Counted from the stretch's first letter, positions 1 to 10,207 are shown. The stretch: DNA of 10,207 bases from a virus (IMGVR_UViG_2558860472_000007); one strand, 5' to 3'. Program-made: numbers and translations. Notes: generated from the letters alone by a model not told the origin.

Positions 1-198
1 CAGCAACTGATTAATCAGGCCAACGATTATATGAACAGTAAACAATGGCCTGGTAAAGCGGCTATTGGTCGTCTGAAAGGTGAGGAACTGGCGCAATATA
101 ATCTGTGGCTGGATTATCTGGACGCACTGGAGCTGGTCGATACTTCCAGTGCGCCAGATATTGAATGGCCTACGCCTCCGGCAGTTCAGGCCAGATGA
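1..198 (+). CDS. Tail fibre assembly chaperone (P2 gpG / Mu U-like), 3' end only; gene starts upstream of the window
   Basis: Frame 1 reads open from position 1 to TGA at 196..198: ...QQLINQANDYMNSKQWPGKAAIGRLKGEELAQYNLWLDYLDALELVDTSSAPDIEWPTPPAVQAR. The C-terminal motif (LDYxDAL...D.S.AP.I.WP) matches that of the complete chaperone-like ORF at 170..772 on the other strand. Absent from the ORF track only because there is no in-window start codon. Confidence 0.75.
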   Translation, partial: QQLINQANDYMNSKQWPGKAAIGRLKGEELAQYNLWLDYLDALELVDTSSAPDIEWPTPPAVQAR

Positions 199-772
199 CA
201 TCCGGCGCGGTGCTGGTATCTGTTGCCGTCACCGCGTCAATGTAATCCAGCACAGCGTTAAGCCGGGTTGTTTCTGCCTGCGTCAGTTTACGTCCGGCCT
301 GCAATTTCAGTTGAATCAGACTGATGGAAGCCATTGCAGTATCAATCAGCGACTGGCGCTGTGCTTCTGCTGCATCTACTGCGGCGCTATGCTGTGCCTC
401 AGTATCGGTCACCCATTTCTCACCATCCCATTTATCGTATGGCGTTAATGGGGCGATAGTGGTTGTATTTTCAGGGTAATCACCCGGAGCGGTGATTTCT
501 TTTGATTCTCCTGTTTTGGTGCTATAGACCGTTTCACCGCGATGGTCTGGCACATACTCCCATGAGTTTAAATCTGCTGAACGGCAGATTGCATAACCAG
601 CTTTATGTATACCTGGTGCATCTAAACAAGAACATGCCGGGATACCGACGCCAACAGCAAGATATTCAGTTGATGTGGAAAGATATTCCCGCGTCTTGCT
701 GTCGTAGTTAAACACGGTCACATCACCCGCTACCGTGGCAATCAGTTCGCTGTTTAATTTTGCCTGTGCCAT
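170..772 (-). CDS. Alternative tail fibre assembly chaperone (inverted copy, Mu U'-like)
   Basis: 200-aa ORF ending ...RLNAVLDYIDAVTATDTSTAPDVIWPELPEA, paralogous at the C-terminus to the + strand partial gene at 1..198. Its ATG overlaps the stop of the upstream fibre-tip cassette (TAATG on the - strand at 770..774), suggesting translational coupling. Orientation opposite to the rest of the tail operon. Confidence 0.8.
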   Translation of the reverse strand: MAQAKLNSELIATVAGDVTVFNYDSKTREYLSTSTEYLAVGVGIPACSCLDAPGIHKAGYAICRSADLNSWEYVPDHRGETVYSTKTGESKEITAPGDYPENTTTIAPLTPYDKWDGEKWVTDTEAQHSAAVDAAEAQRQSLIDTAMASISLIQLKLQAGRKLTQAETTRLNAVLDYIDAVTATDTSTAPDVIWPELPEA

Positions 773-1290
773 TATGCAGCCCTCACAATGAAGTTAAATG
801 CGACGTTGCGCGGCCGGTTTTCAGTGGCAACAGGAACGATTTTAGATGCATCAAAGCTAAAGTTTACAGTCCCATTACCTGTCCCTGAAGGTGCAAGAGT
901 TAATCCTAAAGTTTGTGACACATTCTCAACAGTGACGCCAAATGCACCATCACAATAGATACTTGGGTACAATTGAGTATTACCAAACTTGCCAATTATA
1001 TTTCTGATGGCATCGCCCTGCGATGATAAGATTGCACGCCCAACATCAACCCCGCGCCCGTCATCCCAGCCGCGAATAAATTCACCGCGTAAATCAGGCA
1101 ATTTATTTGTCGGGTAAGCCTTTGCCAGTTCCGGGTATTCTTCAGCAGAAAAAGCCGCACCATTGCATTTCAGCCAGCCTGTTGGCGGAGTGGCTGAAGG
1201 CCACGGAACAGGCACACCAACAGGCAATGCAGAGCCTTCTCCCAAACCAACGTTTATGAAAATGCAGAGATAACGGCTAACTGGCATCAT
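772..1290 (-). CDS. Alternative tail-fibre C-terminal (receptor-binding tip) cassette, probably silent in this orientation; the functional unit likely runs from the crossover site (about 1236) to the stop at 772
   Basis: 172-aa ORF with a tail-fibre tip / tail-collar-like motif (PWPSATPPTGWLKCNGAAFSAEEYPELAKAYP...). The recombination site at 1237..1262 lies inside its 5' end (encoding IFINVGLGEG). The ATG at 1290 is probably fortuitous: in Mu G / P1 C-type systems the variable cassette is expressed only when fused to the constant fibre N-terminus by inversion. Confidence 0.7.
   Translation of the reverse strand: MMPVSRYLCIFINVGLGEGSALPVGVPVPWPSATPPTGWLKCNGAAFSAEEYPELAKAYPTNKLPDLRGEFIRGWDDGRGVDVGRAILSSQGDAIRNIIGKFGNTQLYPSIYCDGAFGVTVENVSQTLGLTLAPSGTGNGTVNFSFDASKIVPVATENRPRNVAFNFIVRAA
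1237..1262. other. DNA-invertase crossover site (gix/pix/hix/cix-type, 26 bp)
   Basis: TTCTCCCAAACCAACGTTTATGAAAA fits the Gin-family consensus TTNTCNNAAACCNNGGTTTNNGANAA (recalled from memory) with one mismatch (C for G at the first base of the right half-site). It sits 55 bp upstream of the invertase ATG and at the 5' boundary of the inverted fibre cassette. Confidence 0.65.
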
Positions 1291-1317
1291 CTCCGGTTTT
1301 TATTCAGGGGATCCATC

Positions 1318-1911
1318 ATGCTTATTGGCTATGTCCGCGTATCAACAAATGACCAGAACACGGAATTGCAGCGTAACGCGCTGGAGTGCGCAGGATGTGA
1401 GCTGATTTTTGAGGACAAAATCAGCGGCACGAAGTCCGACAGGCCGGGACTGAAAAAACTGCTCAGGACATTATCGGAGGGGGATACACTGGTAGTCTGG
1501 AAGCTGGACCGGCTGGGGCGTAGTATGCGGCATCTGGTCATTCTGGTTGAGGAGCTGCGCGAACGCGGCGTTAATTTTCGCAGCCTGACGGATGCTATTG
1601 ATACCAGCACGCCGATGGGGCGTTTTTTCTTTCATGTGATGGGTGCCCTGGCCGAAATGGAACGAGAACTCATTGTCGAGCGGACACGCGCCGGACTGGA
1701 AGCGGCCAGAGCCAAAGGTCGTATTGGTGGCAGACGTCCGAAACTCACCGCGAGTGAGTGGGAGCAGGCCGGGCGGTTGTTGGCTGCAGGGGAATCACGT
1801 CAACGCGTGGCACTGATTTTTGATATTGGCCAGTCCACGCTCTATAAAAAATTCCCCGCCTCCGTGACAAAAAATAAATTGTGTCATCCCTTAGCCAACC
1901 GGGACAAATAG
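1318..1911 (+). CDS. Serine-recombinase DNA invertase (Gin/Pin/Hin/Cin family)
   Basis: 197-aa ORF MLIGYVRVSTNDQNTELQRNALECAGCELIFEDK...GDTLVVWKLDRLGRSMRHL...FRSLTD.IDTS.PMGRFFFHVMGALAEMERELI.ERT..GL..A...GRIGGR.PKLT. Serine-recombinase catalytic motifs (YVRVST, VWKLDRLGRS) plus a C-terminal helix-turn-helix region, with near-identity at the N-terminus to Gin/Pin as I recall them. GGAG-type RBS upstream. Confidence 0.95.
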   Translation: MLIGYVRVSTNDQNTELQRNALECAGCELIFEDKISGTKSDRPGLKKLLRTLSEGDTLVVWKLDRLGRSMRHLVILVEELRERGVNFRSLTDAIDTSTPMGRFFFHVMGALAEMERELIVERTRAGLEAARAKGRIGGRRPKLTASEWEQAGRLLAAGESRQRVALIFDIGQSTLYKKFPASVTKNKLCHPLANRDK

Positions 1912-1970
1912 CCTGACATCTCCGGCACAACTGAAAATATCACTCACCCATTAACCACGGAGTTAAACGG

Positions 1971-3161
1971 ATGAGTGACTATCATCACGGCGTGCAGGTG
2001 CTGGAGATTAACGACGGCACCCGCGTCATTTCCACCGTATCCACCGCCATTGTCGGCATGGTCTGCACGGCCAGCGATGCGGATGCGGAAACCTTCCCCC
2101 TCAATAAACCGGTGCTGATTACCAATGTGCAGAGCGCAATTGCAAAGGCCGGTAAAAAAGGCACGCTGGCGGCATCGTTGCAGGCCATCGCCGACCAGTC
2201 AAAACCGGTCACCGTTGTCGTGCGTGTGGAAGACGGCACCGGCGACGACGAGGAAGCGAAACTCGCGCAGACCGTTTCCAATATCATCGGCACCACTGAC
2301 GAAAACGGTCAGTACACCGGACTGAAAGCCCTGCTGGCGGCGGAGTCGGTTACCGGTGTTAAACCGCGTATTCTCGGTGTGCCGGGACTGGACACCAAAG
2401 AGGTGGCGGTTGCACTGGCATCAGTCTGTCAGAAGCTGCGCGCTTTCGGGTATATCAGCGCATGGGGCTGTAAAACCATTTCCGAGGTGAAAGCCTACCG
2501 CCAGAATTTCAGCCAGCGTGAGCTGATGGTCATCTGGCCGGATTTCCTCGCATGGGATACGGTCACCAGTACCACCGCCACCGCGTATGCCACCGCCCGT
2601 GCGCTGGGTCTGCGTGCCAAAATCGACCAGGAGCAGGGCTGGCATAAAACGCTGTCCAACGTCGGGGTGAACGGTGTTACCGGCATCAGCGCATCTGTAT
2701 TCTGGGATTTGCAGGAGTCCGGCACCGATGCTGACCTGCTTAACGAGTCAGGCGTCACTACGCTGATTCGTCGCGACGGTTTCCGATTCTGGGGTAACCG
2801 TACCTGCTCTGATGACCCGCTGTTCCTCTTTGAAAACTACACCCGCACCGCACAGGTACTGGCCGACACGATGGCTGAGGCGCACATGTGGGCGGTGGAC
2901 AAGCCCATCACCGCAACGCTGATTCGTGACATCGTTGACGGCATCAATGCCAAATTCCGTGAGCTGAAAACAAACGGCTATATCGTGGATGCGGCCTGCT
3001 GGTTTAGCGAAGAATCCAACGATGCGGAAACCCTCAAGGCCGGAAAACTGTATATCGACTACGACTATACACCGGTGCCTCCTCTCGAAAACCTGACCCT
3101 GCGCCAGCGTATTACCGATAAATACCTGGCGAATCTGGTCACCTCGGTTAACAGCAATTAA
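1971..3161 (+). CDS. FI: Contractile tail sheath protein (P2 gpFI)
   Basis: 396-aa ORF MSDYHHGVQVLEINDGTRVISTV..., same length and recognisable sequence as P2 FI; GGAG RBS 8 nt upstream; first gene of the FI-FII-E-T-U-D block. Confidence 0.95.
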   Translation: MSDYHHGVQVLEINDGTRVISTVSTAIVGMVCTASDADAETFPLNKPVLITNVQSAIAKAGKKGTLAASLQAIADQSKPVTVVVRVEDGTGDDEEAKLAQTVSNIIGTTDENGQYTGLKALLAAESVTGVKPRILGVPGLDTKEVAVALASVCQKLRAFGYISAWGCKTISEVKAYRQNFSQRELMVIWPDFLAWDTVTSTTATAYATARALGLRAKIDQEQGWHKTLSNVGVNGVTGISASVFWDLQESGTDADLLNESGVTTLIRRDGFRFWGNRTCSDDPLFLFENYTRTAQVLADTMAEAHMWAVDKPITATLIRDIVDGINAKFRELKTNGYIVDAACWFSEESNDAETLKAGKLYIDYDYTPVPPLENLTLRQRITDKYLANLVTSVNSN

Positions 3162-3173
3162 GGAGCCTGACCG

Positions 3174-3692
3174 ATGGCAATGCCGCGCAAACTCAAGTTA
3201 ATGAACGTCTTTCTGAACGGCTACAGCTATCAGGGCGTCGCAAAGTCCGTCACGCTGCCAAAACTGACCCGTAAGCTCGAAAACTATCGCGGTGCGGGGA
3301 TGAACGGCAGCGCACCGGTAGACCTCGGCCTTGATGACGATGCGCTGTCAATGGATTGGTCGCTCGGGGGCTTCCCGGATTCGGTTATCTGGGAGCTTTA
3401 CGCCGCAACCGGTGTGGATGCCGTACCGATTCGTTTTGCAGGCTCTTACCAGCGTGACGATACCGGCGAAACGGTGGCCGTCGAGGTGGTCATGCGTGGA
3501 CGTCAGAAAGAAATCGACACCGGCGAGGGTAAACAGGGAGAAGACACTGAGTCGAAAATCTCCGTGGTCTGCACCTATTTCCGGCTGACGATGGACGGTA
3601 AGGAGCTGGTCGAAATTGACACCATCAACATGATTGAGAAGGTGAACGGCGTCGACCGGCTGGAGCAACACCGCCGCAATATCGGCCTGTGA
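3174..3692 (+). CDS. FII: Tail tube protein (P2 gpFII)
   Basis: 172-aa ORF immediately after FI with an AGGAG RBS; length and position match P2 FII. Confidence 0.93.
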   Translation: MAMPRKLKLMNVFLNGYSYQGVAKSVTLPKLTRKLENYRGAGMNGSAPVDLGLDDDALSMDWSLGGFPDSVIWELYAATGVDAVPIRFAGSYQRDDTGETVAVEVVMRGRQKEIDTGEGKQGEDTESKISVVCTYFRLTMDGKELVEIDTINMIEKVNGVDRLEQHRRNIGL

Positions 3693-3748
3693 TTTTCATC
3701 CGGTCAGCCTGGCTGGCCGGTTAACCCTGATTCAGAAGTGAGAAAACC

Positions 3749-4024
3749 ATGAACAAAGAAAATGTCATTACCCTGGACAATCCGGTCAAACGTGGTGAGC
3801 AGGTTATCGAACAGGTCACGCTGATGAAACCCAATGCCGGGACGCTACGCGGTGTCAGTCTGGCTGCGGTTGCAAACTCCGAAGTCGATGCACTGATTAA
3901 GGTGCTGCCGCGCATGACGGCACCGATGCTGACCGAGCAGGAAGTCGCCGCGCTGGAACTGCCTGACCTTGTGGCGCTGGCCGGTAAGGTGGTCGGTTTT
4001 TTGTCGCCGAACTCGGTGCAGTGA
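3749..4024 (+). CDS. E: Tail assembly chaperone gpE (zero-frame product)
   Basis: 91-aa ORF MNKENVITLDNPVKRGEQVIEQV... in the position between the tube and tape-measure genes where a tail assembly chaperone gene is typical; ends shortly after a T6G slippery run. Confidence 0.88.
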   Translation: MNKENVITLDNPVKRGEQVIEQVTLMKPNAGTLRGVSLAAVANSEVDALIKVLPRMTAPMLTEQEVAALELPDLVALAGKVVGFLSPNSVQ

Positions 4025-4176
4025 CGTTTCCGAAAAATCTCTCGGTCGATGACCTGATGGCGGATGTGGCAGTGATATTTCACTGGCCGCCATCAGAACT
4101 GTATCCCATGAGCCTGACCGAACTCATCACATGGCGCGAAAAGGCGCTCCGGCGAAGCGGAAACACGAATGAGTAA
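3749..4176 (+). CDS. E': gpE+E' fusion made by a programmed -1 ribosomal frameshift at T TTT TTG (3997..4003); about 142 aa
   Basis: The -1 frame is open for 57 further codons directly after the slippery heptamer (FFVAELGAVTFPKNLSVDDLMADVAVIFHWPPSELYPMSLTELITWREKALRRSGNTNE) and stops at 4174..4176, overlapping the T start at 4169. This is the conserved tail-chaperone frameshift arrangement (P2 E/E', lambda G/GT). 85 + 57 = 142 aa. Confidence 0.8.
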
Positions 4177-6616
4177 CAATGTAAAATTACAGGTATTGCT
4201 CAGGGCTGTTGACCAGGCATCCCGCCCGTTTAAATCCATCCGCACAGCGAGTAAGTCGCTGTCGGGGGATATCCGGGAAACACAAAAATCACTGCGCGAG
4301 CTGAACGGTCAGGCATCCCGTATTGAGGGATTTCGCAAGACCAGTGCACAGCTCGCCGTGACTGGTCATGCACTTGAAAAGGCACGGCAGGAGGCCGAAG
4401 CCCTTGCCACACAGTTTAAAAACACCGAACGTCCGACCCGTGCTCAGGCGAAAGTGCTGGAATCCGCAAAGCGTGCGGCGGAGGACTTACAGGCGAAATA
4501 TAACCGCCTGACGGATTCCGTTAAACGCCAGCAACGGGAACTGGCCGTTGTGGGAATTAATACCCGCAATCTTGCACATGATGAGCAGGGACTGAAAAAC
4601 CGTATCAGTGAAACCACCGCACAGCTTAACCGGCAGCGCGACGCGCTGGCGCGTATCAGTGCGCAACAGGCAAAACTTAACGCAGTCAAACAGCGTTATC
4701 AGGCCGGAAAGGAACTGGCCGGAAATATGGCCTCAGTAGGCGCTGCCGGTGTGGGGATTGCGGCGGCGGGAACGATGGCCGGAGTTAAGTTGCTGATGCC
4801 CGGTTATGAGTTTGCGCAGAAAAACTCAGAATTGCAGGCCGTGCTCGGAGTGGCAAAAGACTCCGCCGAAATGACCGCACTACGCAAACAGGCGCGCCAG
4901 CTCGGCGACAATACCGCCGCCTCGGCGGATGATGCGGCCGGTGCACAGATAATCATCGCGAAAGCGGGTGGGGATGTTGATGCCATTCAGGCGGCAACGC
5001 CGGTCACGCTGAATATGGCGCTGGCGAACCGCCGCACGATGGAAGAAAACGCCGCCCTGCTGATGGGGATGAAATCCGCCTTTCAGCTTTCAAACGATAA
5101 GGTCGCTCATATCGGGGATGTTCTCTCCATGACGATGAACAAAACCGCCGCCGATTTTGACGGCATGAGCGATGCGCTGACCTATGCCGCACCTGTGGCA
5201 AAAAATGCCGGTGTCAGCATTGAAGAAACCGCCGCAATGGTCGGGGCGCTGCATGATGCAAAAATCACAGGCTCAATGGCGGGGACGGGAAGCCGTGCCG
5301 TGTTAAGCCGCCTGCAGGCACCGACGGGAAAAGCATGGGATGCACTCAAAGAGCTTGGCGTGAAAACCTCAGACAGCAAGGGAAACACCCGGCCAATATT
5401 TACCATTCTGAAAGAAATGCAGGCCAGTTTTGAGAAAAACCGGCTCGGTACTGCCCAGCAGGCTGAATACATGAAAACTATTTTCGGGGAGGAGGCCAGC
5501 TCAGCCGCCGCCGTGCTGATGACTGCCGCCTCAACCGGAAAGCTGGACAAACTGACCGCTGCGTTTAAAGCCTCAGACGGGAAGACTGCCGAGCTGGTAA
5601 ATATCATGCAGGACAACCTCGGCGGTGACTTTAAGGAGTTTCAGTCCGCTTATGAGGCGGTGGGGACAGACCTGTTTGACCAGCAGGAAGGCGCACTGCG
5701 TAAGCTCACGCAGACGGCCACAAAGTATGTGTTAAAACTCGACGGCTGGATCCAGAAAAACAAATCACTGGCGTCAACCATCGGCCTCATTGTCGGTGGC
5801 GCGCTGGCGCTTATTGGCATCATCGGTGCCATTGGTCTTGTAGCCTGGCCGGTTATCACTGGCATCAATGCCATCATCGCGGCAGCAGGCGCAATGGGGG
5901 CAGTCTTCACGACGGTTGGCAGTGCTGTTATGACCGCCATCGGGGCGATTAGCTGGCCGGTTGTGGCCGTGGTGGCCGCCATTGTCGCCGGGGCGTTGCT
6001 TATCCGTAAATACTGGGAGCCTGTCAGCGCATTCTTTGGCGGTGTGGTGGAAGGGCTGAAAGCGGCATTTGCGCCGGTGGGGGAACTGTTCACGCCACTT
6101 AAGCCGGTGTTCGACTGGCTGGGCGAAAAGTTACAGGCCGCGTGGCAGTGGTTTAAAAACCTGATTGCCCCGGTCAAAGCCACTCAGGACACCCTGAACA
6201 GTTGCCGTGACACGGGGGTCATGTTTGGGCAGGCACTGGCTGACGCGCTGATGCTGCCGCTTAATGCGTTCAACAAACTGCGCAGCGGTATTGACTGGGT
6301 ACTGGAAAAACTCGGTGTTATCAACAAAGAGTCAGACACACTTGACCAGACCGCCGCCAGAACTCAAGCCGCCACGTATGGCAGCGGTGGTTATATTCCG
6401 GCGACCAGCTCTTATGCAGGCTATCAGGCTTATCAGCCGGTCACGGCACCGGCTGGCCGCTCTTATGTAGACCAGAGTAAAAACGAATATCACATCAGCC
6501 TGACGGGTGGTACTGCGCCGGGGACACAGCTTGACCGCCAGTTACAGGATGCGCTCGAAAAATACGAGCGGGATAAACGTGCGCGCGCCCGTGCCAGCAT
6601 GATGCATGACGGTTAA
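4169..6616 (+). CDS. T: Tail tape measure protein (P2 gpT)
   Basis: 815-aa ORF with a coiled-coil-like N-terminal region, a long hydrophobic Gly/Ala/Ile-rich central block and a C-terminal region; size and position match P2 T. Confidence 0.95.
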   Translation: MSNNVKLQVLLRAVDQASRPFKSIRTASKSLSGDIRETQKSLRELNGQASRIEGFRKTSAQLAVTGHALEKARQEAEALATQFKNTERPTRAQAKVLESAKRAAEDLQAKYNRLTDSVKRQQRELAVVGINTRNLAHDEQGLKNRISETTAQLNRQRDALARISAQQAKLNAVKQRYQAGKELAGNMASVGAAGVGIAAAGTMAGVKLLMPGYEFAQKNSELQAVLGVAKDSAEMTALRKQARQLGDNTAASADDAAGAQIIIAKAGGDVDAIQAATPVTLNMALANRRTMEENAALLMGMKSAFQLSNDKVAHIGDVLSMTMNKTAADFDGMSDALTYAAPVAKNAGVSIEETAAMVGALHDAKITGSMAGTGSRAVLSRLQAPTGKAWDALKELGVKTSDSKGNTRPIFTILKEMQASFEKNRLGTAQQAEYMKTIFGEEASSAAAVLMTAASTGKLDKLTAAFKASDGKTAELVNIMQDNLGGDFKEFQSAYEAVGTDLFDQQEGALRKLTQTATKYVLKLDGWIQKNKSLASTIGLIVGGALALIGIIGAIGLVAWPVITGINAIIAAAGAMGAVFTTVGSAVMTAIGAISWPVVAVVAAIVAGALLIRKYWEPVSAFFGGVVEGLKAAFAPVGELFTPLKPVFDWLGEKLQAAWQWFKNLIAPVKATQDTLNSCRDTGVMFGQALADALMLPLNAFNKLRSGIDWVLEKLGVINKESDTLDQTAARTQAATYGSGGYIPATSSYAGYQAYQPVTAPAGRSYVDQSKNEYHISLTGGTAPGTQLDRQLQDALEKYERDKRARARASMMHDG

Positions 6617-6630
6617 GGAGGTGACGAAAA

Positions 6631-7110
6631 ATGATGCTCGCGTTAGGTATGTTTGTTTTTATGCGCCAGACGCTGCCACACCAGACCATGCAGCGTGAAT
6701 CAGATTATCGCTGGCCGTCAAATTCCCGTATCGGTAAACGGGATGCCTACCAGTTTCTCGGTGTGGGTGAGGAAAACATGACGCTTGCCGGTGTGCTTTA
6801 TCCTGAACTGACCGGCGGAAAGCTGACGGTGACCACGCTCAGACTGATGGCAGAGGAAGGCCGGGCGTGGCCGTTGCTGGATGGCACCGGCATGATTTAC
6901 GGCATGTATGTCATCAGCAGGGTGAGTGAAACAGGGAGTATTTTCTTTGCAGACGGCACACCCCGGAAAATTGATTTTACGCTGTCGCTCACCCGCGTTG
7001 ATGAATCACTGGCCGCGCTTTATGGCGATATCGGTAAACAGGCGGAATCGCTCATCGGTAAGGCTGGCAGTATGGCGACCAGATTCACGGGTATGACGGG
7101 GGCGGGATAA
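6631..7110 (+). CDS. U: Tail protein gpU
   Basis: 159-aa ORF with an AGGAGG RBS 9 nt upstream; length and position match P2 U. Its stop overlaps the D start (TAATG). Confidence 0.9.
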   Translation: MMLALGMFVFMRQTLPHQTMQRESDYRWPSNSRIGKRDAYQFLGVGEENMTLAGVLYPELTGGKLTVTTLRLMAEEGRAWPLLDGTGMIYGMYVISRVSETGSIFFADGTPRKIDFTLSLTRVDESLAALYGDIGKQAESLIGKAGSMATRFTGMTGAG

Positions 7111-8273
7111 TGCTGGATGCGCTGACATTTGATGCAGGCAGTACACTGACGCCGGATTATATGCTGATGCTCGACAGCAGGGATATTACCGGCAATATCA
7201 GCGACCGTCTGATGAGCATGACCCTGACGGATAACCGGGGCTTTGAGTCTGACCAGCTTGATATTGAACTGAATGATGCCGACGGGCAGGTCGGGCTGCC
7301 GGTTCGTGGCGCTGTCCTGACGGTGTATATCGGCTGGAAAGGTTTTGCCCTGGTATGCAAAGGGAAATTTACCGTTGATGAGGTCGAACACCGGGGCGCG
7401 CCGGATGTGGTCACCATCCGCGCCCGGAGTGCAGATTTTCGCGGGACGCTCAATTCCCGCCGTGAAGGCTCCTGGCATGACACCACGCTCGGTGCGATTG
7501 TTGAGGCGATAGCCTCCCGTAACAGGCTGGAAGCCAGTGTCGCGCCGTCACTGGCAGGAATTAAAATCCCGCACATCGACCAGTCGCAGGAGTCCGACGC
7601 GAAATTCCTGACCCGTCTTGCAGAACGCAACGGCGGTGAGGTGTCGGTAAAAATGGGAAAACTGTTGTTTCTCAAAGCGGGGCAGGGGGTGACGGCCAGT
7701 GGTAAAAAAATCCCGCAGGTCACCATAACCCGCAGCGACGGCGACCGCCATCATTTTGCGATTGCTGACCGTGGAGCCTATACCGGCGTAACGGCAAAGT
7801 GGTTACACACCAAAGACCCGAAGCCGCAAAAGCAGAAGGTAAAACTGAAACGCAAAAAGAAAGAGAAACACCTGCGCGCACTGGAGCACCCGAAAGCGAA
7901 ACCGGTCAGGCAGAAGAAAGCGCCTAAAGTACCGGAAGCGCGCGAAGGTGAATACATGGCCGGTGAGGCTGACAACGTTTTTGCCCTGACCACGGTATAT
8001 GCCACAAAAGCGCAGGCCATGCGCGCCGCTCAGGCGAAGTGGGATAAACTGCAACGGGGCGTTGCGGAGTTCTCCATCAGCCTGGCTACCGGTCGGGCAG
8101 ATATTTACACGGAAACACCGGTCAAAGTGTCTGGCTTTAAGCGCGTCATAGACGAGCAGGACTGGACAATCACTAAGGTGACACACTTTCTGAATAATTC
8201 CGGCTTCACGACGTCCTTAGAGCTTGAGGTCAGGCTTTCTGATGTGGAGTACGAAACAGAAGATGATGAGTGA
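7110..8273 (+). CDS. D: Tail protein gpD
   Basis: 387-aa ORF, same length and position as P2 D, translationally coupled to U; contains an internal lysine-rich stretch. Confidence 0.9.
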   Translation: MLDALTFDAGSTLTPDYMLMLDSRDITGNISDRLMSMTLTDNRGFESDQLDIELNDADGQVGLPVRGAVLTVYIGWKGFALVCKGKFTVDEVEHRGAPDVVTIRARSADFRGTLNSRREGSWHDTTLGAIVEAIASRNRLEASVAPSLAGIKIPHIDQSQESDAKFLTRLAERNGGEVSVKMGKLLFLKAGQGVTASGKKIPQVTITRSDGDRHHFAIADRGAYTGVTAKWLHTKDPKPQKQKVKLKRKKKEKHLRALEHPKAKPVRQKKAPKVPEAREGEYMAGEADNVFALTTVYATKAQAMRAAQAKWDKLQRGVAEFSISLATGRADIYTETPVKVSGFKRVIDEQDWTITKVTHFLNNSGFTTSLELEVRLSDVEYETEDDE

Positions 8274-8354
8274 TGTTTTTATTTTATCTGTTTGTTTTAT
8301 AAGGATAAATTAACTAAAATGGCACCATCAACAAAACCGGAAGAGGTGCTCGCG

Positions 8355-8573
8355 ATGTTTCATTGTCCTTTATGCCAGCATGCCGCACATGCGCGTACAA
8401 GTCGCTATATCACTGACACGACAAAAGAGCGTTATCACCAGTGCCAGAACGTGAATTGCAGCGCCACGTTCATCACTTATGAGTCGGTACAGCGATACAT
8501 CGTGAAGCCGGGAGAAGTCCACGCCGTAAGACCGCACCCGTTGCCGTCAGGGCAGCAAATTATGTGGATGTAA
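8355..8573 (+). CDS. ogr: Ogr, zinc-finger late-gene transcriptional activator
   Basis: MFHCPLCQHAAHARTSRYITDTTKERYHQCQNVNCSATFITYESVQRYIVKPGEVHAVRPHPLPSGQQIMWM, 72 aa with a Cys4 zinc-finger arrangement (CPLC...CQNVNC), recognised as P2 Ogr / E. coli OgrK. The ORF track extends this to 8292 (93 aa); I take the internal ATG at 8355 as the start because it gives the canonical 72-aa protein. Confidence 0.9.
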   Translation: MFHCPLCQHAAHARTSRYITDTTKERYHQCQNVNCSATFITYESVQRYIVKPGEVHAVRPHPLPSGQQIMWM

Positions 8574-8584
8574 TTACAAACAGG

Positions 8585-8610
8585 AAGCCCCTCAGTCGAG
8601 GGGCTTTTTT
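8585..8610 (+). terminator. Rho-independent terminator downstream of ogr
   Basis: Perfect 7-bp GC-rich stem GCCCCTC / GAGGGGC with a 4-nt loop (AGTC), followed by TTTTTT (8605..8610). Confidence 0.75.
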
Positions 8611-8674
8611 GTCGATGTGGTCAATGTGTGGACGTGACCAGAAATAAATCCTTTTATTTCATTGTATTACGCGT

Positions 8675-8701
8675 AAAAAATAAGCCCGTGTAAGGGAGAT
8701 T
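8675..8701. other. Candidate P2-type attachment core (attR), coinciding with the 3' end of cyaR
   Basis: AAAAAATAAGCCCGTGTAAGGGAGATT matches the P2 att core as I recall it (from memory, not verified). It lies exactly at the transition from phage genes to host genes. Confidence 0.6.
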
Positions 8702-8761
8702 ACACAGGCTAAGGAGGTGGTTCCTGGTACAGCTAGCATTTTATGGGTTATGTTTTTCAGC
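8675..8761 (-). ncRNA. cyaR: CyaR (RyeE) Hfq-dependent small RNA
   Basis: Minus-strand sequence GCTGAAAAACATAACCCATAAAATGCTAGCTGTACCAGGAACCACCTCCTTAGCCTGTGTAATCTCCCTTACACGGGCTTATTTTTT matches CyaR as I remember it: the CACCUCCUUA anti-Shine-Dalgarno-like motif, and a terminator hairpin (GCCUGUGUAA / UUACACGGGC) followed by a U-tract. The gene lies downstream of yegQ, as in E. coli. Confidence 0.8.
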
Positions 8762-8768
8762 GAAACGG

Positions 8769-8811
8769 ATGATAACCTTAATAAATACAGCTGTATGTGA
8801 TCGGTTTCTAA
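8769..8811 (-). promoter_or_regulatory. cyaR promoter: candidate -10 element and class II CRP site
   Basis: On the - strand, TATCAT sits at -13..-8 relative to the inferred cyaR 5' end (plus coords 8769..8774). A CRP-like site TTAGA-N6-TCACA (plus coords 8796..8811) is centred near -42, consistent with the known cAMP-CRP dependence of cyaR. Exact transcription start is inferred. Confidence 0.5.
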
Positions 8812-8845
8812 GAATTTTCCATCCGGGAAAAATAATCGAAATTAA

Positions 8846-10207
8846 TCACTTACCGTGGGGATTACGCGTGGTTTCCCCGGAGAAATTACGCATCAGCAGC
8901 GCGTAATTGAGCTCAAGATCCTGCGGGACCGGGAGCCACACAGTATAACCATCGCCTGGTGCTATCGGCATAGCTTCGCCTTTGGCGTTTTCCATGTGCT
9001 CAAGGGTAAAATTAATGTTGCCTTGCGGCGTCATCAGCTCAAGGCTGTCGCCAACGGAGAATTTATTTTTCACCGCTACCGCCGCGAGGTCCCCCTTGCG
9101 CTCACCGGTAAACTCACCAACAAACTGCTGGCGGTCAGAAACTGAATAACCGTATTCGTAGTTCTGATAATCGTCGTGAGTATGACGACGCAGGAAACCT
9201 TCAGTATAGCCACGATGCGCCAGACCTTCCAGAGTTTCCAGCAGGCTGGTATCGAACGGTTTTCCCGCAGCGGCGTCATCGATAGCTTTGCGGTAAACCT
9301 GTGCGGTGCGTGCACAATAGTAGAAAGATTTGGTACGACCTTCGATTTTCAGCGAATGCACGCCCATTTTGGTCAGGCGTTCTACATGGGCGATGGCGCG
9401 CAGATCTTTCGAGTTCATGATGTAAGTGCCGTGCTCATCTTCAAACGCGGTCATATACTCGCCCGGACGCTGGGCCTCTTCGATCATAAACACTTTGTCG
9501 GTTGGTGCGCCGATACCCAGCGTCGGCTCAACATTTTGCACCGGAATCGGCTCGTACTTGTGTACGATGTTGCCAACATCATCTTCTTTCCCTTCCTGGA
9601 CGTTGTACTCCCAGCGGCAGGCGTTGGTGCAGGTGCCCTGGTTCGGGTCGCGCTTGTTGATATAGCCAGAGAGCAGGCAGCGACCGGAGTAGGCCATGCA
9701 CAGCGCGCCGTGAACGAAGATCTCGATCTCCATATCCGGCACCTGATTGCGGATCTCTTCAATCTCTTCCAGCGACAGCTCGCGAGAGAGGATCACGCGG
9801 GTCAGGCCCATTTGCTGCCAGAATTTCACCGTCGCCCAGTTCACGGCGTTAGCCTGCACCGAAAGGTGGATCGGCATTTCAGGGAAGTGCTCACGCACCA
9901 GCATAATCAGCCCTGGATCGGACATAATCAGCGCATCCGGCCCCATTTCCACCACCGGTTTCAGGTCACGGATAAAGGTTTTCAGCTTGGCGTTGTGCGG
10001 TGCAATGTTGACCACGACATAAAACTTTTTCCCCAGCGCGTGGGCTTCATTGATGCCGAGCTGAAGATTTTCGTGGTTGAATTCGTTGTTGCGCACACGC
10101 AGGGAATAACGCGGCTGGCCCGCATAAACAGCATCTGCGCCATAAGCGAAAGCGTAACGCATATTTTTCAGCGTTCCCGCCGGGGAAAGGAGTTCCGGTT
10201 TAAACAT
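8846..10207 (-). CDS. yegQ: Peptidase U32-family protein YegQ/TrhP (tRNA U34 hydroxylation)
   Basis: 453-aa ORF MFKPELLSPAGTLKNMRYAFAYGADAVYAGQPRYSLRVRNNEFNHENLQLG... recognised as E. coli YegQ. Its start codon is the last three bases of the window, so the promoter is outside. Confidence 0.93.
   Translation of the reverse strand: MFKPELLSPAGTLKNMRYAFAYGADAVYAGQPRYSLRVRNNEFNHENLQLGINEAHALGKKFYVVVNIAPHNAKLKTFIRDLKPVVEMGPDALIMSDPGLIMLVREHFPEMPIHLSVQANAVNWATVKFWQQMGLTRVILSRELSLEEIEEIRNQVPDMEIEIFVHGALCMAYSGRCLLSGYINKRDPNQGTCTNACRWEYNVQEGKEDDVGNIVHKYEPIPVQNVEPTLGIGAPTDKVFMIEEAQRPGEYMTAFEDEHGTYIMNSKDLRAIAHVERLTKMGVHSLKIEGRTKSFYYCARTAQVYRKAIDDAAAGKPFDTSLLETLEGLAHRGYTEGFLRRHTHDDYQNYEYGYSVSDRQQFVGEFTGERKGDLAAVAVKNKFSVGDSLELMTPQGNINFTLEHMENAKGEAMPIAPGDGYTVWLPVPQDLELNYALLMRNFSGETTRNPHGK

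Follow-up and report, generated by a model that had tools for sequence, protein, structure and literature searches.

What recombination, if any, takes place at a 26-bp sequence that lies inside an apparent tail-protein reading frame and a few dozen nucleotides upstream of a DNA invertase gene? We addressed this question in a stretch of 10,207 nucleotides (the window), which covers the tail genes of a P2-like prophage of E. coli that ends next to yegQ/trhP. An earlier note, made from the same sequence, had described the 26 bp as a crossover site of the Gin/Hin/Cin/Pin type. The features needed at the outset are these:

1237..1262: invertase-proximal 26-bp crossover site, TTCTCCCAAACCAACGTTTATGAAAA, established by exact sequence check
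1237-1248, 1249-1250 and 1251-1262: inner half-site, core dinucleotide AA and outer half-site of that site
1318..1911, + strand: DNA invertase of 197 amino acids, a Pin/Gin/Cin-type small serine recombinase (PF00239, E=2e-52; PF02796, E=7.7e-13)

The crossover site

The two 12-bp half-sites, TTCTCCCAAACC and TTTTCATAAACG (the latter being the right half read on the opposite strand), match at 8 of 12 positions and enclose the 2-bp core AA. Both the coordinates of the site and the 55 nt that separate it from the invertase ATG at 1318 (spacer 1263-1317) proved to be exactly as first described. For recognition of such sites we used a degenerate family pattern, TTNTCNNAAACCNNGGTTTNNGANAA, from which the site differs by a single mismatch; at up to three mismatches this pattern is expected to match 0.01 times per window, and its scan revealed one site in the window. 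As positive controls we scanned Mu, where the only matches were the annotated G-segment boundaries, 16 kb of P1, where they were the annotated cixL and cixR and nothing else, and the e14 region of E. coli K-12, where two sites were matched. Given this low expectation and the clean results with Mu, P1 and e14, the match is far above chance, and the comparison with a consensus that had been named as a possible refutation left the assignment standing. Moreover, the e14 site beside pinE is identical to the window site at 26/26 positions and the flanks are homologous on both sides. This identity, the adjoining Pin-like invertase and the inverted partner described below bear out the original assignment to the Gin/Hin/Cin/Pin type, with two half-sites and a 2-bp centre. 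Judged by its sequence, 1237-1262 is a classical Pin-type crossover site of a known system and shows no departure from such systems; the only mildly new item at the locus is a strictly conserved block in the spacer, which is a testable candidate for the invertase promoter.

The invertase and its probable enhancer

Alignment of the invertase gave 87% identity with Pin, 79% with Cin and 77% with Gin, and the protein matches the Mu Gin structure 3UJ3 over residues 1-182 (E=6.8e-94); no specific invertase family of NCBIfam scored above its cut-offs. The reading frame is intact and encodes an N-terminal resolvase-type catalytic domain and a C-terminal helix-turn-helix; in the alignment, the nucleophilic S9 and all residues invariant among Pin, Gin and Cin are conserved. 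In Hin, Q151, R154 and L155 together with basic residues at 47, 48 and 51 contact Fis or the enhancer, and these residues are conserved only among invertases (PMC3798978). Their equivalents in the window protein, whose numbering is offset by one residue, are Q150, R153 and L154 and K46, K47 and R50, all of them present. We also noted that the C-terminus is 13 residues longer than that of e14 Pin (1864-1911, ending in VTKNKLCHPLANRDK) and that this tail is unrelated to the tails of Gin and Cin.

The 5' part of the invertase gene contains a further feature:

1336..1407: probable recombinational enhancer (sis), by homology to the P1 cin enhancer

The annotated enhancer of P1 cin (gene nt 19-90) is identical to window positions 1336-1407 at 59 of 72 nucleotides. 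A crude motif score identified two Fis-like 15-mers in this region, at 1339-1353 (GTATCAACAAATGAC) and 1388-1402 (GCGCAGGATGTGAGC), which are both conserved in the invertase gene of the window and in pin, gin and cin, and whose centres are 48 nt apart. Fis sites of such enhancers follow a 48-bp spacing rule. The proximal 15-mer lies ∼97 bp from the centre of the crossover site, and in the Hin system the enhancer is ∼100 bp from the proximal site (PMC3798978). These observations suggest that 1336-1407 is probably the recombinational enhancer, with two putative Fis sites.

The invertible segment and its partner site

Since the window starts inside the invertible segment, the partner site cannot be within the window. 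We therefore turned to E. coli ABW_A19, in which positions 1-2613 of the window are found without a single difference (locus L001; window position = L001 position - 7000). An inverted-repeat scan of L001 5000-8400 gave, as the top-ranked pair reported for the fibre region, the window site and a partner, TTCTCACATACCTTGGTTTGGGAGAA, at L001 6372-6397. This is 604-629 nt before the window start and inside the 392-aa fibre gene H, so that the inverted upstream partner that had been predicted is indeed present, with a matching core. From ABW_A19, with identity over 1-2613 only, we infer that the partner and the constant part of the fibre are placed in the same way upstream of the window. The features of the segment are as follows:

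1..1250: right-hand ∼1.25 kb of the invertible segment (100% reverse identity to E. coli UTME-13)
1..198, + strand: 3' end of the expressed (ON) tail-fibre assembly gene, inside the segment (PF02413, E=2.7e-17; L001 CDS 6758-7198)
170..772, - strand: tfaE-like tail-fibre assembly gene, co-switched with the silent cassette (PF02413, E=5.5e-33; annotated tfaE)
772..1250, - strand: silent (OFF) fibre-tip cassette with a tail-collar domain (PF07484 Collar, E=6.6e-16)

When both sites are written in the same sense, they share the core and inner half-site at 14/14 positions (TTGGTTTGGGAGAA) and differ in their outer halves. On the + strand the distal core reads TT and the proximal one AA, which is one dinucleotide in inverted orientation. 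From core to core the segment measures ∼1.87 kb, and its left ∼615 bp precede the window. When we inverted the segment in silico from core to core, both sites were regenerated and the fibre changed from ...LLTYLGLGE-AAKRNVG... (392 aa) to ...LLTYLGLGE-GSALPVGVPVPW... (434 aa), in frame, so each orientation has an intact in-frame fibre gene. It had been proposed that inversion joins constant and variable fibre parts in frame, and this holds for the 434-aa reading frame obtained in silico, which is also annotated as a gene in UTME-13, where the segment is flipped. The silent cassette, which in the window orientation is without an N-terminus of its own, fuses in frame to the constant H after inversion; it corresponds to the C-terminus of the 434-aa UTME-13 fibre and is homologous to e14 StfE and to the tip of HK97 Stf. 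Thus alternative C-termini are placed on a constant N-terminus and the matching assembly gene is switched together with its tip, as in the tail-fibre host-range switches of Mu (G), P1 (C) and e14 (P).

The minus-strand reading of the site, in frame with ORF 772-1290 (which begins MMPVSRYLCIFINVGLGEGSALP...), is (I)FINVGLGE(G), and it had been suggested that the whole site encodes FINVGLGEG within the fibre. This is correct for the core and inner half (VGLGEG...), but the 'IFIN' codons belong to the outer half, which stays beside the invertase. As the outer half-site never moves from the invertase gene, the site is half coding and half intergenic.

In RefSeq the silent cassette appears as a stand-alone 171-aa 'phage tail protein' (L001 7772-8287), the ATG of which lies outside the invertible segment. 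HK97, a phage that lacks an invertase, carries TTCTCCCAAACCAAGGTTTGTGCGAG in its stf gene (L115 2637-2662); this codes for NLGLGEG and has the same inner half-site and core as the window, and the DNA of the two tips is ∼92% identical. The HK97 sequence indicates that the crossover site falls at a junction of fibre-gene modules that is itself conserved.

The genes downstream of the invertase encode sheath, tube, E/E', tape measure, U, D and ogr. Two overlapping tail-assembly ORFs (3749-4024 and 4021-4176), annotated in L001 as tail assembly protein and GpE family protein, occupy the place of the P2 genes from which E and E+E' are made by programmed frameshifting. A gene for an ogr-type zinc-finger late activator (8292-8573) lies at the prophage end, directly followed by host yegQ/trhP on the - strand (8846-10207), in the neighbourhood that in E. 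coli K-12 contains the cryptic P2 remnant ogrK. The window is a mosaic relative to sequenced genomes: after its identity with ABW_A19 up to 2613, there are 456 mismatches across the next ∼6.4 kb (2614-9000), and the ABW_A19 prophage adjoins fieF. Within the set of complete E. coli genomes the best whole-window identity was 98%.

Natural inversion of the segment

A 400-bp query that spans the in silico inverted junction matched E. coli UTME-13 at 400/400 positions. In this strain the gene set is the same but the segment is flipped: the 434-aa fibre gene is followed directly by the tfaE-like gene, both on the + strand, while the other cassette is on the - strand beside the same invertase protein, WP_001605738.1. 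Window positions 1236-3583 are collinear with UTME-13 with one mismatch, and positions 1-1262, when reversed, show four mismatches, all of which are in the outer half-site (1251, 1254, 1256 and 1260). Since the mismatches are confined to the outer half, the reversed match is 100% up to position 1250, which places the exchange within 1236-1250, the inner half and core. A reversed segment that is 100% identical between flanks that differ by one base implies a very recent inversion.

Both arrangements are common. Among complete E. coli genomes, when at least 80% of the query had to be covered, there were 960 records with the OFF junction (tip-site-invertase) and 356 with the ON junction (H constant-site-tip). 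UTME-13 and the frequency of both junctions in E. coli provide natural, as opposed to experimental, evidence that the segment inverts. For the e14 pinE segment and for fibre segments of P2-like prophages inversion has been shown by sequencing and PCR, and the e14 remnant still inverts in culture (PMC4272514). One practical consequence is that assemblies of such strains may differ by a ∼1.9-kb inversion at zero evolutionary distance, as the window and UTME-13 illustrate.

Distribution of the arrangement among related loci

We surveyed 79 IMG/VR loci with related invertases together with reference loci, 81 in all. In 76 of these a site precedes the invertase ATG by 53-55 nt, and 46 of the 76 have the identical 26-mer. 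Where there was enough upstream sequence (57 loci), exactly two sites were present in 52, and the cores of the pairs were AA/TT in 49 and GA/TC in 2 of Mu type. Paired sites were mostly identical at 14/14 positions of the inner half and core and at ∼7/12 positions of the outer halves. Immediately inside the segment, the first 10 bp belong to one of a few unrelated classes, and the flank outside is conserved, a combination of variable inside and conserved outside that is the signature expected of cassette exchange at the site. Three site-like matches occurred in 2 of the 57 loci, and in 3 pairs the second site was in direct orientation. In two viral contigs (L048 1273-1298 and L055 1932-1957) this second site has core AA on the same strand as the proximal site; these direct sites could reflect either a further site beyond the fetched flank, as in a multi-site shufflon, or an arrangement prone to deletion.

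The conserved spacer block and expression of the invertase

The spacer between site and invertase contains one strikingly conserved element:

1282..1290, + strand: invariant block TGGCATCAT, candidate extended -10 (TGn + CATCAT) of the invertase promoter

The block, in the form TGGCAT[C/G]AT, is invariant in 58/58 distinct site-plus-spacer sequences, those of Mu and e14 included, while the 19 nt that precede it vary freely. We then scanned one genome per species with a variable gap between site and block. At the 17 loci where an invertase gene follows, which represent nine enterobacterial genera, the gap was 17 nt in every case. The 13 matches without a recognised invertase start had gaps ranging from 10 to 23 in eleven cases and a gap of 17 in two, namely a Kluyvera locus (L090) whose invertase start was not matched by our pattern and a cyanobacterial locus (L100).

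As a promoter the block would match the -10 consensus at 4/6 positions, and the implied -35 at 1262-1267 (ATGCAG), which matches at 2/6, would have 1 bp in common with the site, namely its last base. Transcription would then start at about 1296-1298, upstream of a candidate ribosome-binding site, AGGGGA, at 1306-1311. A consensus scan of 1100-2000 found no sigma-70 promoter, in agreement with the earlier failure to identify a clear -35/-10 pair in 1263..1317. We consider it possible, though somewhat less than an even bet, that this block acts as a weak extended -10 promoter for the invertase gene. As the -35 position abuts the site, site-bound invertase could modulate its own synthesis. It is a good deal less probable, and we put it forward as a speculation, that TGGCAT[C/G]AT is an extended -10 with the site at about -60 to -35 and that occupancy of the site, or its capture in an invertasome, feeds back on invertase synthesis. 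If this were so, the state or occupancy of the switch would be coupled to recombinase dosage, an idea that may well be found already in older Mu or e14 papers; outside those papers, the retrievable records and literature yielded nothing on such coupling or on mapping of the gin, pin and cin promoters. Since we found no usable literature, what we say of these promoters is taken from annotated records.

The proposal of autoregulation had drawn on Mu and P1, in both of which the equivalent site was said to overlap the invertase promoter. Mu and e14 do have the layout of the window. The P1 record contradicts the precedent: cixL overlaps the 3' end of cin, cixR is located in S, and the predicted promoters are upstream of cin. 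In that upstream region (L004 7590-7615) we noted a degenerate cix-like sequence, TTTCCACACATACTGGTTTTTGTTAA, which has a good right half and extends across the -35 and -10 of the predicted promoter P1cin, so that in P1 it is only a degenerate sequence that overlaps this promoter.

Other readings of the block were considered and set aside. A terminator-like hairpin at 1279-1298 was discarded, since the spacers of the window, e14 and Mu fold no better than shuffled sequences (z ∼0). A sigma-54 promoter of the form TGGCAT-N5-CTGCT fits the spacers of e14 and Mu by eye (GG-N10-GC), but an extra base in the class to which the window belongs places GG where GC is required. The block might also have been conserved as an ATG start on the minus strand; this was uninformative, as the frame is open in 31/32 variants with ∼5 codons free to vary. 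The block offers a concrete and cheap test of the transcription start of the invertase and of its autoregulation.

Proposed mechanism and alternative explanations

We regard it as very probable that 1237-1262 is the invertase-proximal site of a Pin-type, Fis/enhancer-dependent inversion switch of fibre tips in a P2-like E. coli prophage. Such a switch would select between two tail-fibre tips, which are paired with separate assembly chaperones. In the orientation of the window the collar-domain tip (772-1250, - strand) and tfaE (170-772) are disconnected and silent, with the other tip fused to H. By analogy with the established mechanism of the family, dimers of the enzyme would bind both 26-bp sites and join the Fis-bound enhancer, probably 1336-1407, in an invertasome on supercoiled DNA. 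Both strands of the 2-bp core would be cut by Ser9; one dimer pair would turn by 180 degrees, and religation would need matching AA/TT cores. This need for matching cores would enforce inversion, and the identity of the inner halves and cores would ensure that both sites are regenerated and that the switch is reversible. The locus thus has the appearance of a working Pin-type host-range switch in a P2-like prophage, a result that carries little weight beyond annotation.

Four other explanations deserve consideration. The site could be a true Pin-type site in a switch that is now frozen, its invertase unexpressed or inactive or its partner lost. The partner was seen in ABW_A19 rather than in the window itself, no canonical promoter was found by our scan, and many prophages of this kind are defective, e14 being a remnant. 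Yet even the e14 remnant still inverts in culture (PMC4272514), the invertase frame of the window is intact with S9 and all Pin/Gin/Cin-invariant columns in place, and the comparison with UTME-13, with 1-1250 100% identical to the flipped segment and the flanks one base off, speaks for a very recent inversion; a fossil switch is therefore quite improbable. More radically, the 26 bp might be a mere site-like coding motif (...LGLGE...) at a junction of fibre modules, unused in recombination, for HK97 stf with its TTCTCCCAAACCAAGGTTTGTGCGAG (NLGLGEG) indicates that an inner half and core can simply be part of a coding region in a phage without an invertase. Against this, the outer half is conserved although it lies outside any fibre reading frame, the site keeps its distance of 53-55 nt from the invertase gene in 76/81 loci, an inverted partner is present and the orientation polymorphism breaks within the site. 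The flipped locus of UTME-13 effectively refutes the coding-motif explanation, to which we attach a negligible probability.

ORF 772-1290 might also be an independent short tail-protein gene that starts at ATG 1290 or 1287, in which case the site would be plain coding sequence of that gene and TGGCATCAT would be its start region (ATGATGCCA = Met-Met-Pro). RefSeq has the 171-aa 'phage tail protein', and the frame from the ATG through the site is open in 31/32 distinct variants. However, an open frame says little here, since only ∼5 variable codons separate two blocks that are conserved on other grounds, and these would be free of stops by chance in ∼79% of cases. The first codon is ATC in 9/32 variants, Mu included, which leaves one ATG; no leftward promoter was evident in our scan; and the natural ON form joins the constant H at the core. 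We find this explanation about as improbable as the fossil switch, and the minus-strand 'phage tail protein' of 171-172 aa (772-1287/1290) is most likely an annotation artefact that represents a promoterless alternative C-terminus of the fibre. A multi-site shufflon, in which at least three sites serve several alternative tips, is known from plasmid p15B and from one EPEC P2-like prophage, in which three inverted repeats give four variants (PMC4272514), and our survey included the two loci with three site-like matches and the three pairs with a direct second site (two of them L048 and L055). But the window has one site, exactly two were present in 52/57 related loci, and two were found both across the 16-kb L001, even at up to five mismatches, and in the inverted-repeat scan of 5000-8400, so we judge a shufflon at this locus to be slightly less probable still.

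Comparison with known systems

One of the closest known systems is the P segment of e14 (stfP-tfaP / tfaE-stfE / pinE). Its proximal 26-bp site is identical to that of the window and its distal site shares the core and inner half, TTGGTTTGGGAGAA; the cassettes are alike in type, with tfaE and a collar-domain, StfE-like tip, the invertases are 87% identical, and spacers of 54 nt in e14 and 55 nt in the window both contain the TGGCATCAT block. The two systems differ in that e14 is a lambdoid remnant whereas the window belongs to an intact-looking P2-like myovirus prophage beside yegQ/trhP with a constant fibre part of P2 H type. In addition, the outer half of the distal site is TTCTCACATACC in the window and CTCTCGAAAACC in e14, the window invertase is 13 aa longer at the C-terminus, and the second cassette is a different one with a gp53-like tip.

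The G segment of Mu has the same layout, in which the constant part of S is followed by gixL, Sv-U / U'-Sv', gixR and then a 54-nt spacer to gin. Its invertase is 77% identical, and the enhancer region within the gene and the TGGCATGAT block are conserved. Mu departs from the window in its GA/TC core, its gix sites, which are perfect inverted copies, its 3-kb segment and its other fibre tips. The C segment of P1 resembles the window in its AA/TT core, half-site family, invertase (79%) and enhancer (59/72). It is unlike the window in that cin is on the other side, with cixL over its 3' end, in that the TGGCATCAT block is lacking, and in that the predicted cin promoters are upstream of cin, away from the functional cix sites.

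The fibre segments of other P2-like prophages (EPEC E2348/69 and pro483) agree with the window in phage type and in location, with the fibre genes on one side and the tail sheath gene on the other. Prophage pro483, with an annotated DNA invertase, has a 92% match to window positions 1-2000, and for the EPEC P2-like prophages inversion has been shown experimentally (PMC4272514). Cassette content varies among these prophages, however, and one EPEC prophage has three sites. The Hin/hix system of Salmonella flagellar phase variation, which we compared by description, likewise has two 26-bp sites, Fis-contact residues in the recombinase and a Fis-bound enhancer inside the recombinase gene ∼100 bp from the proximal site (PMC3798978). 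In contrast to the window, the element that Hin inverts is a promoter and not a pair of coding cassettes, and the hin gene is located inside the invertible segment.
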